A stretch of 63,419 nt of DNA from positions 1 to 63,419 of the forward strand of contig CALXPY010000002.1 of assembly GCA_944390395.1 (NCBI GenBank), in the 5' to 3' direction. Shown here piece after piece: positions 16,698 through 42,503 of this stretch. The position numbers and the translations under genes are program-made. Below the pieces are notes generated by a model, which ran no database searches, had not been told where the DNA came from, and saw nothing but the letters and a program-made list of their open reading frames with translations. Source of the stretch: an uncultured Clostridia bacterium. Its GTDB lineage: Bacteria; Bacillota; Clostridia; TANB77; CAG-508. How positions within the stretch are numbered: the stretch's first letter is position 1; the number at the start of each line of letters is the position of its first letter.

Positions 16698-18629
16698 ATG
16701 AATTTAGAAGAATATCAAGGTATATTTAGAGGAAATGAGAAAGGTTTTGGATTCGTAAAAATAGAAGGACAAGAAAACGAAATATATGTATCTAGAGCTA
16801 ATACAAAAGATGCAATAGATGGAGACGAAGTAATTGTAAAAATATTAAAAAAAGAAGGTAAAGAAAAACACAGAGAAGGGAAGGTTACAAAAGTTACAAA
16901 ACATAATTTAGATACAATAGTTGGAACTTTTAAAAAGAGCAAAAAATTTGGGTTTGTAATACCAGATAATAAAAAAATGAATACAGATATATATATTTCA
17001 AAAAAGAACATGAAAAAAGCAAAAAATAATCAAAAAGTAGTTGTAAAAATTATAAAGTTCCCTTCAGGAAACAAAAGCGCAGAAGGAAAAATAATAGAAA
17101 TTATAGGGCATATTGATGAAGCTGGTGTAGATATATTATCTTTAGTTAAGGAATATAATTTACCTTATGAATTTCCAAAACTTGTTATAGAAGAAGCAAG
17201 ATCAATAAACAAATTAATTGATAAAAAAGATATTCCTCATAGATTAGATTTAAGAGAAAAAGAAATTTTTACTATAGATGGAGAAGATGCAAAAGACTTA
17301 GATGATGCAGTATATGTAGAAAAAACAAAGCAAGGAACTTATATATTAGGTGTACACATTGCTGATGTAAGCTATTATGTAAAAGAAGGTTCAATGTTGG
17401 ATAAAGAAGCAATAATTAGAGGAACAAGTATTTATATGATGGATAGAGTAATACCAATGCTTCCAAAAGAGTTATCTAATGGTATTTGTAGCTTAAATCA
17501 AGGAGAAGAAAGATTTGCAATTTCATGTATAATGGAAATAGATAATGAAGGAAAAGTGATTTCATCCGATATAAAAAAGAGTATAATAAAAGTTACAAAA
17601 AGAATGAGTTATACAGATATATACAAAATTCTAGAAGAAAAAGATGAAAAGATAATAAAAGAAAATAAAAAGTATGTTGAACATTTTAAAAGAATGGACG
17701 AGCTGGCTAGAATATTAAAGAAAAGAAGAGAAAAAGCCGGAAGTTTAAATTTAGACATACCAGAAAGTAAGATTATATTAGACCATAGTGGAGTTGCTAT
17801 TGATGTAAAGAAATATGAGCTTACATTTGCAAATGAAATAATAGAACAATTTATGCTAACAGCAAATGAGACTATAGCAGAAAAATTTTATTGGCTAAAT
17901 GCACCATTTATATATAGAGTTCATGAAAATCCAGATATGGAGAAAATAACAGAGCTAAATAAATTCTTATTTAACTTAGGCTATAAAATAAAAGTAAGTA
18001 AAGACAATGTTTATCCAAAATCTTTTGCAGAAGTACTAGAAAAATCAAAAGGAACTCCAGAAGAAAGAGTAGTATCAAATTTAATATTAAGAACATTAAA
18101 AGTAGCAAGATATGAAAGTGAAAATAAAGGTCACTTTGGAATAGCAAGTAAATATTATTGCCATTTTACATCTCCAATAAGAAGGTATCCAGATTTATTC
18201 ATTCATAGAATAATATCTGAATATTTGAAAAAAGGATATAATTTAAAAGAAAAAGAAATAGAAGACTATAGAGAAAAGGCAAAGAAATATGCAGAAACAT
18301 CATCAGAAAGAGAAAAGGTAGCACAAAAAGTAGAAAGAGAAGCAGAAGACATTAAAAAAGCAGAATATATGCAAGATAAAGTCGGAGAAATGTATGAAGG
18401 AATAATTTCTAGCATAACTTCTTTTGGAGTATATGTTGAATTGGAAAATACTGTAGAAGGACTAATTAGATTTGACGATCTAGGAAACGAATACTTTATA
18501 TATGACGAAAACAGAAAAACACTTATGGGAGAACGAAGTAAAAAACTTTATAAAATAGGAGATAAAATAAATATCAAAGTAAAATATGCAAGTAAAGAAA
18601 CCAGAAGAATAGACTTTGAAAAAGTATAA
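16698..18629 (+). CDS. rnr: Ribonuclease R
   Basis: N-terminal cold-shock-like GFGFV, RNB core (DGEDAKDLDDAV, HFTSPIRRYPD), C-terminal S1 domain; ATG 16698 behind AAGGAGAG. The track start 16581 overlaps secG. Confidence 0.93.
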   Translation: MNLEEYQGIFRGNEKGFGFVKIEGQENEIYVSRANTKDAIDGDEVIVKILKKEGKEKHREGKVTKVTKHNLDTIVGTFKKSKKFGFVIPDNKKMNTDIYISKKNMKKAKNNQKVVVKIIKFPSGNKSAEGKIIEIIGHIDEAGVDILSLVKEYNLPYEFPKLVIEEARSINKLIDKKDIPHRLDLREKEIFTIDGEDAKDLDDAVYVEKTKQGTYILGVHIADVSYYVKEGSMLDKEAIIRGTSIYMMDRVIPMLPKELSNGICSLNQGEERFAISCIMEIDNEGKVISSDIKKSIIKVTKRMSYTDIYKILEEKDEKIIKENKKYVEHFKRMDELARILKKRREKAGSLNLDIPESKIILDHSGVAIDVKKYELTFANEIIEQFMLTANETIAEKFYWLNAPFIYRVHENPDMEKITELNKFLFNLGYKIKVSKDNVYPKSFAEVLEKSKGTPEERVVSNLILRTLKVARYESENKGHFGIASKYYCHFTSPIRRYPDLFIHRIISEYLKKGYNLKEKEIEDYREKAKKYAETSSEREKVAQKVEREAEDIKKAEYMQDKVGEMYEGIISSITSFGVYVELENTVEGLIRFDDLGNEYFIYDENRKTLMGERSKKLYKIGDKINIKVKYASKETRRIDFEKV

Positions 18630-18633
18630 TATA

Positions 18634-18682
18634 AAAAATTACACTTTAAACATTCAGAAATATGTTTAAAGTGTAATTTTTT
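18634..18682 (+). terminator. Strong rho-independent terminator after rnr
   Basis: AATTACACTTTAAACAT / ATGTTTAAAGTGTAATT stem followed by T6, A-run on the 5' side. Confidence 0.85.
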
Positions 18683-18774
18683 ATATTTATTTAGAGTTTA
18701 TATTATAAATAAAAGCAAGATGCAACAAAATTGTGTTAAAATATTATCTAATATATAGAAAGAAGGGGAGAAAA

Positions 18775-40872: not shown

Positions 40873-40901
40873 TTGACAATTGAAAATAGTTAATATAAAA
40901 T
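40873..40901 (+). promoter_or_regulatory. Promoter driving the SSR-containing mini-ORF
   Basis: TTGACA 40873-40878, 17-nt spacer, TAAAAT 40896-40901. Confidence 0.5.
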
Positions 40902-40970
40902 TTAACCATAATTGAAAAATAATTAATTTAAATCTTTTCCAATTAAAAAAGTAAGAGGAGAATGAAAAGT

Positions 40971-41036
40971 ATGAAGGCTAAAACCGTTGCCGTTGTAGAG
41001 AGAGAGAGAGAGAGAGAGCTATGTTTTAGAGAATAA
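40971..41036 (+). CDS. Mini-ORF MKAKTVAVVERERERELCFRE containing an (AG)11 tract
   Basis: SD AAGAGGAG 40953-40960, ATG 40971 (alternative ATG 40962), stop 41034-41036; expression not demonstrable from sequence. Confidence 0.3.
   Translation: MKAKTVAVVERERERELCFRE
40997..41018. repeat. Perfect dinucleotide microsatellite (AG)11
   Basis: 22 nt of uninterrupted AG read directly in the sequence. Confidence 0.98.
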
Positions 41037-41085
41037 AACAGGTTTAGTTTTTGTACCTAAATTTAGAATATATTATGTAAAATAT

Positions 41086-41119
41086 AGAACGTATCGAATT
41101 TTTTGGATGCGTTCTTTTT
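41086..41119 (+). terminator. Rho-independent terminator after the mini-ORF
   Basis: AGAACGTATC / GATGCGTTCT stem (one G-U), then TTTT. Confidence 0.7.
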
Positions 41120-41184
41120 GTGTGCTTTTTTCGGATTTTACTAGTGGATATATATGAAATATAAGAATTAAATTATTCTTTAAT

Positions 41185-41359
41185 CGTGATAGTAATAATA
41201 TGTTTTTTCTTGCTCGTCCCAACTCTTAAGAACCTGTAGAAAATTTTGTTTAATCTAATGTTTACAAAGGTTAAAACTAGAGAAACAAAATTTTAACAGT
41301 TTCTAAATAGTCGGTCCCCACACGCAGCTCGCTACGAAAAAAATATTATTACTATCACG
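41185..41359. mobile_element. Inverted-repeat-bracketed 126-bp segment: candidate invertible DNA switch (alternatives are a MITE or a long RNA hairpin)
   Basis: Left arm CGTGATAGTAATAATATGTTTTTTC 41185-41209. Right arm GAAAAAAATATTATTACTATCACG 41336-41359. 17-bp perfect core (41185-41201 / 41343-41359), 24/25 overall with one indel. Confidence 0.45.
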
Positions 41360-41452
41360 TAAAGAGTGAAATTTTATATAAATAGCAAAAATATATTAGC
41401 ACTATTGGAAGAATAAAGTTAAAGATAAAAAAGAAGAGGAGAATTGAAATTT

Positions 41453-42503
41453 ATGAAAATTGTAAAAGAGAAAAGAGGAATAACATTAATAGCATTGGCA
41501 GTAACAATAATTGTTATTTTGATATTAGCGGGAGTGACAATAGATGCAGTATTTAGTGAAAATGGAATAATAAATAAAGCAAAAGAAGCGGCAAATGCAA
41601 TGAATAATGCAGTAGCAAATGATCAAGCCGAGCTAAATGATTTGTTTGAAGAATTAAATGAAATAATGAATTCGGAATGGAATAATAATATAGAAATACC
41701 AGATCCAGGACCAGATTTACCAACAAAAATAGAAGATGTAACAGACATACAAGATGAAACCATACAAGTAGAAGACGAATATGGGAATAAAGTAACAATC
41801 CCAAAAGGTTTTGAAGTAGTGGAAGAAGAAGGAACAACAGTACCAGAAGGAATAGTAATACAAGATAAAGATGAAAATCAATTTGTGTGGATACCAGTAG
41901 GAAGAGTGTATAAAGACGCAAGTAAAACAAATTATAGTGATATACAATTAGGAAGATATACGTTTAATACAAGTAATGGTACACCTACACCAGTACAATT
42001 AGCTTATACAGAAGAAAGTTCAGAAAATTATAAACAATTAGTATCATTAAATTTTAACGGGAATAATTATCAGGAATATGCAACTAGAGCAAATCCAGAT
42101 GGAATAGTATCAAGTGGAACTAATGGACTTAATGCAATAGCAAAAGACTTAGAAGGATTTGTAAATAGTGTAAGAGATAATGGTGGATATTATTTAGGAA
42201 GAATAGTATTTATACAAGAGATGGGGCATACAAATTATGCAAATAAGAATAGTGTAAATAAAGAAATTAAAAATACGGGAACCATTGGAGATGAAGTATG
42301 CAATATACATGATATGTCTTCTAATATAGAAGAATGGACTACAGAATACTGTACTTATTCAGATAGTAATATGGCACGACCATGTACGGAAAGACGGAGG
42401 ATATTATTCATGGGATAGTTATACCACATGTACAAGATCTTACTATGTTTCTGAATTTTCTACTCTTATAAAAGGATTTCGTATATTGTTATATATAAAA
42501 TAA
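41453..42503 (+). pseudogene. Prepilin-type N-terminus + FGE/SUMF1-like domain surface protein, frameshifted near 42385-42396
   Basis: MKIVKEKRGITLIALAVTIIVILILAGV pilin-like leader; QFVWIPVG and NIHDMSSNIEEWTTEYC FGE-like motifs. ORF stops at 42418, but the next frame continues GGYYSWDSYTTCTRSYYVSEFSTLIKGFRILLYIK* to 42503. Confidence 0.7.

Follow-up and report, generated by a model that had tools for sequence, protein, structure and literature searches.

Does the 175-bp inverted-repeat element found ahead of a pilin-like gene in an uncultured gut Clostridia bacterium act as an invertible DNA switch? The element (positions 41185–41359) lies in a stretch of 63,419 nucleotides, the whole of which was analysed and is referred to here as the window. 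The window has a G+C content of approximately 28%, and its housekeeping genes include those of a ribosomal protein operon, recG, pyrH, frr and polC-like genes. The organism has so far been seen only in assemblies of gut metagenomes, and in the species collection the nearest genomes, also metagenome-assembled, are labelled "uncultured Clostridia bacterium". An original prediction, made from the letters of this sequence, had described the element as a candidate recombinase-driven ON/OFF switch. Based on comparison with paralogous loci, we propose that it is one copy of a family of inverton cassettes located 50–95 nt before dispersed genes for secreted or surface proteins in this low-G+C gut bacterium, a reading to which we assign a probability of about 0.6. 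The copy in the window is itself a probable inverton.

Structure of the inverted-repeat element

Direct reading of the sequence bears out the predicted anatomy. Both arms contain a 17-bp perfect core and differ by a sole indel, an extra G at 41202. They are separated by 126 bp, and 93 nt lie between the right arm and the ATG at 41453. The features of the element are as follows.

41185–41209: left arm CGTGATAGTAATAATATGTTTTTTC, consisting of the perfect core CGTGATAGTAATAATAT (41185–41201), then G (41202) and TTTTTTC
41336–41359: right arm, on the gene side, GAAAAAAATATTATTACTATCACG, consisting of GAAAAAA and then the perfect core ATATTATTACTATCACG (41343–41359)
41210–41335: the 126 bp between the arms
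41202–41342: segment predicted to invert, between the perfect cores, taking in the T/A run on each side as well as the additional G (41202)
41210–41223: P box TTGCTCGTCCCAAC, a G+C-rich, nearly invariant segment end that reads GTTGGGACGAGCAA on the minus strand
41313–41335: Q box GGTCCCCACACGCAGCTCGCTAC, the other conserved G+C-rich end, adjacent to the gene in the window
about 41229–41251 and about 41283–41304: stems of an imperfect central palindrome whose loop is variable; 12 bp of these stems are perfectly paired

A repeat search extends the arms, at the weaker level of 70% complementarity, to 60 nt (41148–41207 and 41337–41396), in agreement with the predicted weak complementarity of the flanks, and identifies the predicted internal hairpin as the 12-bp perfect palindrome at 41240–41251 and 41283–41294. 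The two G+C-rich segment ends that had been pointed out correspond to the P and Q boxes, which are conserved over nine copies of the element (see below). The inverted repeat is real, and a chance origin is not expected. The 17-mer core occurs at two sites in the 63-kb window, namely the two arms, and none of 100 first-order Markov simulations of the window produced a perfect inverted 17-mer within 300 bp. The window holds only one other inverted repeat of the 17-mer class, at 18628–18691 after the RNase R gene. This 20-bp perfect inverted repeat has a 23-nt loop with A and T runs at its sides and looks like a bidirectional terminator.

Either strand of the element folds far better than shuffled sequence, with a z-score of about −6.6, as follows automatically from its inverted repeat. 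The loop of the central palindrome measures ∼31 nt in the window, compared to ∼10 nt in a short subtype described below. All pairs of the central stem are kept across copies, with one compensatory change from A-T to C-G. The two possible orientations of the segment can be told apart by the P and Q boxes only, as the central palindrome is near-identical in both directions. An interior that is mostly an imperfect palindrome, within an element that folds equally well on both strands, could also be expected of a fixed palindromic cis-element, for instance a protein-binding site, cruciform or 5′-UTR hairpin, that undergoes no programmed flipping today. The compensatory changes by which the arms and central stem stay paired favor the same explanation. 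On the other hand, the element has no Rfam match: a search with the window region and one locus carrying the segment in the opposite orientation returned best E-values above 0.4 and scores far below the gathering thresholds, which excludes a curated RNA family. A tRNA/tmRNA scan found nothing relevant. We return to the fixed element once the orientations have been described.

The downstream gene

The gene that follows the element occupies 41453–42418 on the plus strand and encodes a protein of 321 aa with a hydrophobic, pilin-like N-terminus. Its relatives form a paralog family of ∼420 aa. Compared to a 97%-identical version of 397 aa (L039 and L040), the window gene carries an in-frame deletion of 228 bp, and the C-termini of both versions depart from that of the ∼420-aa family. 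Thus, judged from these differences, the window gene is probably a decaying paralog.

The description of the gene as pilin-like is only partly upheld, since the resemblance is confined to the N-terminal helix and all matches are below threshold. N_methyl (PF07963) scores 11–13 bits against a cutoff of 21.2 (E-value of 0.1–0.3), and TIGR01710, which covers the GspG N-terminus, scores 14–15 bits against a cutoff of 88.9 (E-value of 0.02). With the N-terminal methylation motif below its curated threshold, identification as a type IV pilin or pseudopilin is not supported. A profile search of PDB sequences with the downstream protein family found nothing significant, and the AlphaFold model of the protein has a pLDDT of 35.6.

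A family of cassettes at paralogous loci

We compared the contigs encoding the window protein and eight paralogs, together with loci obtained from pattern and protein scans, 40 loci being fetched in all. The same cassette is present at at least nine paralogous loci, where it precedes paralogs of the downstream gene of the window; further copies of the inverted repeat, a check proposed with the original prediction, are thus found at paralogous loci. The sites are dispersed in the genome and have different neighboring genes. The usual order is a leader module, the arm-bounded segment, a 5′ UTR of 50–95 nt and the paralog; at some loci, E2, a further arm-bounded element, and a spacer come between leader and segment. 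The original prediction, which considered a single locus, had missed the multi-copy cassette with its conserved leader, the co-variation of the arms and the decay of the downstream paralog.

Nine distinct copies were aligned after all had been turned one way. Within the arms, ATAATAT and the T-run are invariant. The P box TTGCTCGTCCCWAC is nearly invariant, its only variation being W at one position and one T/C change, and the Q box, GRTCCCCACAC..AGCTCGCT, is conserved. Two subtypes are distinguished by interior lengths of 126 nt and 104 nt, a difference that arises from the variable loop of the palindrome.

Decayed or locked cassettes were also identified. A single arm is joined to the leader at P0038/P0019 (L009–L014 and L042–L043), the cassette interior is deleted in L033, and a Q-box remnant and the right arm remain in L020, the syntenic locus of a related species. 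The exact Q-box pattern was not found in a collection of one genome per species or in JGI metagenomes. A scan of metagenomes with the P-box pattern yielded two real loci and one chance match (L046), and the same scan of viral contigs had no match. A blastn search against plasmids and phages found no similar sequence.

These results bear on the possibility that the element is a MITE inserted upstream of the gene. Shortness, terminal inverted repeats and multiple copies are shared with such elements. However, direct target-site duplications are lacking, the flanks TCTTTA and TAAAGA being inverted instead; the copies occur only at a fixed position before one gene family and within a duplicated cassette; the 63-kb window contains one copy; and nothing similar is present in the plasmids, phages and viral contigs. 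Target-site duplications, which had been named as a sign against a switch, and copies scattered over unrelated sites were looked for and not found. We therefore regard a MITE as highly improbable.

The segment is found in both orientations across paralogous loci

At three loci the segment has the orientation of the window, with the Q box on the gene side (orientation A), and at six it is reverse-complemented, with the P box on the gene side (orientation B). The loci, with the number of inspected assemblies in which the orientation is constant, are as follows.

Orientation A: window locus, in six assemblies (the window, L001, L002, L029, L039 and L040)
Orientation A: P0022 (L003–L008), in seven assemblies
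Orientation A: L044
Orientation B: P0049 (L015–L018), in four assemblies
Orientation B: P0091 (L030–L034), in four assemblies
Orientation B: P0011 (L035–L038), in four assemblies
Orientation B: P0054/g425 (L041 and L005), in two assemblies
Orientation B: P0078 (L047)
Orientation B: L045

The interiors of L003 and L015 can be aligned with an identity of 0.98 when one is flipped, compared to 0.69 when read directly. The corresponding values are 0.83 and 0.67 for the window and L047, and 0.81 and 0.65 for the window and L035. As the 126-nt and 104-nt subtypes each occur in both orientations, at least two separate flips are required. An unpaired extra base beside ATAT stays with the P-box end, TTGCTCGTCCC, in 8 of the 9 copies, whichever way the segment is turned. 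Movement of this base with the P box points to crossing-over in the outer cores, where we place the exchange. Stop-free stretches across the junction comprise 22–54 codons and have no start codon.

A rearrangement breakpoint is located inside an arm. L003 and L005 have the P0022 gene in common and are identical over the 188 nt upstream of it, and their divergence begins exactly inside the left arm. To the left of this gene, a leader and a TraX gene are present in L003. In L005 and L041, which come from two unrelated samples, a single cassette lies between two divergent paralogs, arranged head-to-head:

L005, 1484–4284: head-to-head paralogs with one cassette
L041, 305–3090: head-to-head paralogs with one cassette

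The position of the breakpoint suggests recombination between the arms of different loci. Taken as a whole, the orientation pattern is, as far as sequence comparison can tell, a signature of recombination at the arms, and is neither that of a MITE nor that of an RNA motif.

Covariation among homologs had been named as the mark of a conserved RNA stem. The arms do co-vary, but each change that keeps the pairing replaces both bases of one Watson-Crick pair with those of another, and G-U intermediates are absent; a DNA repeat accounts for this pattern no less well than an RNA stem.

The predicted invertible switch is partly supported by the reverse-complemented segments at paralogous loci, but all six assemblies of the window locus have one orientation. 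Assemblies show the majority state of a locus. Biased or locked switches are known, as in C. difficile strains with only one detectable orientation (PMC5914908). For these two reasons, the constant orientation does not refute inversion. Uninterrupted arm identity is 7–10 bp in B-type copies compared to 17–18 bp in A-type copies, and the less perfect arms of the former could mean that these copies are fixed. Many contigs break just upstream of the paralog genes, which fits heterogeneity and a multi-copy repeat equally well.

The constancy of orientation at each locus in all inspected assemblies and the lack of a recombinase gene in the window and the flanks of the fetched loci (see below) are also expected of the fixed palindromic element introduced above, in which case the two orientations would have been left behind by past rearrangements among the repeated copies, through homologous recombination for instance. 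However, identity reaches 98% between interiors of opposite orientation, whereas the neighboring 5′ UTRs and leaders have clearly diverged further, which indicates that there was exchange in the recent past or that an asymmetric element is under a common constraint. Furthermore, the asymmetric P and Q boxes are the best conserved parts, which an orientation-independent hairpin does not explain, and an RNA motif is not expected to occur on either strand relative to the gene. A fixed element is, in our judgment, a rather doubtful explanation.

A candidate split promoter and the state of the switch

Each arm contains an outward-facing TATTAT. On the P-box side, TTGGGA (126-nt subtype) or TAGGGA (104-nt subtype) is located 15–16 nt upstream of TATTAT, whereas the corresponding hexamer on the Q-box side, as read by eye, matches 1 of 6 consensus positions. 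In the window, the pair forms the following candidate:

41195–41222, minus strand: candidate split promoter, with TTGGGA (41222–41217), a 16-nt spacer and TATTAT (41200–41195) in the left arm

It points outward at the left end, with the gene behind it, and matches the consensus at 9 of 12 positions. In the flipped copy L047, a promoter scan finds the TTGGGA/TATTAT pair directed towards the gene. If TATTAT is taken as the −10 element, the 5′ UTR would be ∼45–50 nt for most paralogs. The original prediction had flagged this promoter and expected it to face the gene after inversion. In flipped copies the TTGGGA/TAGGGA end does face the gene and is joined to the gene-side TATTAT, but a match of 9/12 makes for a weak promoter call. 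Additional support comes from L047, in which the cassette is in orientation B and the leader module is absent, and from the divergent-gene loci, which also have no leader before the gene; at these loci, the cassette or its immediate surroundings should supply a promoter. The reading that we favor, on the strength of consensus matches, is a split promoter that would be completed on the P-box side. Since the P box of the window is on the far side, the candidate promoter reads away from the gene, and the window copy is probably in the OFF state.

The leader module

A conserved module precedes the switch at most paralog loci and recurs at at least seven of them. In the window, it has the following parts.

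40873–41170, plus strand: leader module
40873–40901: promoter-like site TTGACA-17-TAAAAT, strong and sigma-70-like, matching 11/12 consensus positions
40971–41036: short ORF of 21 codons with a ribosome-binding site
40997–41018: (AG)11 tract within the short ORF
41086–41120: intrinsic terminator hairpin, with compensatory changes that preserve its stem at other loci

Copies have 10, 11 or 13 AG units, and if the tract changed in length, the short ORF would be thrown into another reading frame. One more AG unit would open a long frame through the terminator, and this frame is uninterrupted in all copies. However, its variable sites are distributed 21/19/21 over the three codon positions, and a coding frame through the terminator was therefore rejected.

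The leader raises the possibility of a DNA-inversion switch that acts after transcription start, as in cwpV and flgB of C. difficile. In such a switch, the promoter at 40873–40901 would drive expression, and the orientation of the segment would decide termination, processing or read-through of a long 5′ leader RNA. This promoter, with its 11/12 match, is conserved upstream of most paralog loci, the promoter within the cassette is weak, and the switchless P0038/P0019 loci, whose genes are intact, join the leader directly to the gene-side arm. Against these points, an intrinsic terminator belonging to the leader, its stem preserved by compensatory changes, comes ahead of the switch; no orientation-specific terminator is predicted in the segment, the central hairpin being the same both ways; and L047 and the divergent genes of L005/L041 have a cassette and no leader before the gene. 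We consider post-initiation control unlikely. A switch specifically of the cwpV type found no support: the upstream promoter is present, but a terminator already follows it before the switch, and none is predicted to form in one orientation only.

Proposed mechanism and the search for a recombinase

We propose that the element is an inverton with a split promoter, which would operate as follows. A site-specific recombinase, encoded elsewhere in the genome, would pair the two arms, and strand exchange would take place inside the perfect cores (41185–41201 and 41343–41359), so that the 141 bp between the cores flip. The asymmetry of the segment would be confined to its G+C-rich ends, the P and Q boxes. 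As each arm would offer an outward TATTAT and the −35-like hexamer would come from the P-box end only, a promoter would be assembled on whichever side holds the P box. In the window, where the P box is on the far side, the switch is presumed to be OFF, and the gene to be driven would be the decayed paralog.

No recombinase gene was found in the window when ORFs were inspected by motif and by eye and unclear ORFs were searched against Pfam, which bears out the corresponding statement of the original prediction. The wider search that had been suggested with it was carried out on the window and on the flanks of the 40 fetched loci; gene tables and ORF lists revealed no tyrosine or serine recombinase within 2.5–10 kb of any fetched paralog locus.

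Additional elements at the paralog loci

B-type loci contain another arm-bounded element, E2, which follows the leader and precedes the switch. It was looked for in the window and is absent there. Its arms are GTTATATATATTATTT, which enclose a G+C-rich interior of ∼50 nt, and it is found at the following positions.

L015, about 2610–2720: E2
L030: E2
L047, 2596–2706: E2
L044, 1–105: E2

E2 of L044 is the reverse complement of that in L015, L030, L045 and L047, and E2 may be a second invertible element. Insertions of ∼100 bp with terminal complementarity of their own are present inside or just upstream of some leaders (L042, about 2100–2200; L001, 4300–4400; L009), and may be small mobile or palindromic elements. 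Genes for PDDEXK_2 proteins (Rpn/YhgA-like recombination-promoting nucleases) adjoin several paralog loci (L043, 1227–2135; L044, 2367–3281; L012, 2–238), and genes for IS30- and IS256-type transposases are located near paralog loci as well.

A broader reading, which we advance very tentatively, is that more than ten secreted-protein genes are subject to layered genome-wide variation, combining the (AG)n leader, up to two invertible elements, recombination between the arms of different loci and the split promoter. It is a doubtful but conceivable part of this reading that a mutable (AG)n tract in the short ORF just before the terminator would act together with the invertible elements, E2 and the switch. 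We are similarly hesitant about the suggestion that inter-locus arm recombination would re-pair genes with cassettes and yield shared switches between divergent genes. Formation of the promoter only on flipping, with the −35 element supplied by the segment and the −10 element by the arm, is likewise a speculative component.

Comparison with known inversion systems

The mpl (P35) lipoprotein genes of Mycoplasma penetrans have gene-adjacent invertible promoters (Horino et al. 2003, via PMC2268961). Both systems involve a dispersed multigene family of surface proteins in which most genes have their own short, arm-bounded invertible element directly upstream, and in neither is the recombinase necessarily adjacent to the switches. 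The differences are that organism and protein family are distinct, that inversion here is deduced from comparison between loci only, that our cassettes add a conserved leader and, at some loci, a second arm-bounded element, and that the promoter proposed here would be split between segment and arm.

The RecV-dependent switches of C. difficile include flgB, with a segment of 154 bp and 21-bp imperfect repeats, and cwpV (PMC5914908). They are also from Clostridia, are similar in size and arm length to the elements described here (126–141 bp with 24–25-bp arms), lie between an upstream promoter and a surface-structure gene, and include locked variants whose arms are imperfect or shorter. Both flgB and cwpV act post-initiation, the latter by terminator formation and the former through Rho (PMC5914908). 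Unlike in cwpV, a terminator belongs to the leader itself here and none is predicted that depends on orientation; and, unlike the C. difficile switches, no RecV-like gene was found in the window or the flanks of the fetched loci. The likeness to cwpV and flgB that had been drawn originally therefore holds for size, arm length and position, but does not extend to a terminator mechanism of the cwpV type, none being predicted in either orientation.

The invertible promoters of Bacteroides capsule and surface genes, and gut invertons in general, are similarly found at dispersed loci with related arms and beside cell-surface genes (PMC11602134, PMC2268961). The Bacteroides recombinase is presumed to act globally (PMC11602134), as would the one proposed here. 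In contrast, the whole promoter lies inside the segment in Bacteroides and both orientations are readily seen in populations, whereas flipping here is deduced from inter-locus comparison only.

In a further class, which comprises vpma of Mycoplasma agalactiae, vsp of M. bovis and vsa of M. pulmonis, inversion connects a single promoter with the genes of a multigene family (PMC2268961). The single cassette between two divergent paralogs in L005/L041 resembles this arrangement, and the existence of alternative flanks on the left of P0022 and P0091 suggests that inter-locus arm recombination could re-pair genes with cassettes in a comparable manner. However, the vpma, vsp and vsa genes are clustered, with one expression site and an adjacent recombinase, whereas the paralogs described here are dispersed and most have their own cassette. 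By our comparison, the closest systems in function and layout appear to be mpl of M. penetrans and the invertons of gut Bacteroides, and the closest in size and class flgB and cwpV of C. difficile.

Implications

Invertons beside the surface genes of gut bacteria are well documented, and the element described here does not represent a new kind of mechanism; it corresponds to a well-known type of ON/OFF switch. The window copy is a good inverton candidate from an uncultured lineage, with support from sequence comparison. Its arms, P box and Q box provide concrete sequences for read-based inverton screens. If the family is active, these uncultured gut Clostridia, which have small genomes and are represented by metagenome assemblies only, would vary a large family of secreted proteins with a pilin-like N-terminus by DNA inversion. 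Such activity would also explain the assembly breaks at these genes and would add an example from Clostridia that resembles the mpl system of Mycoplasma penetrans.
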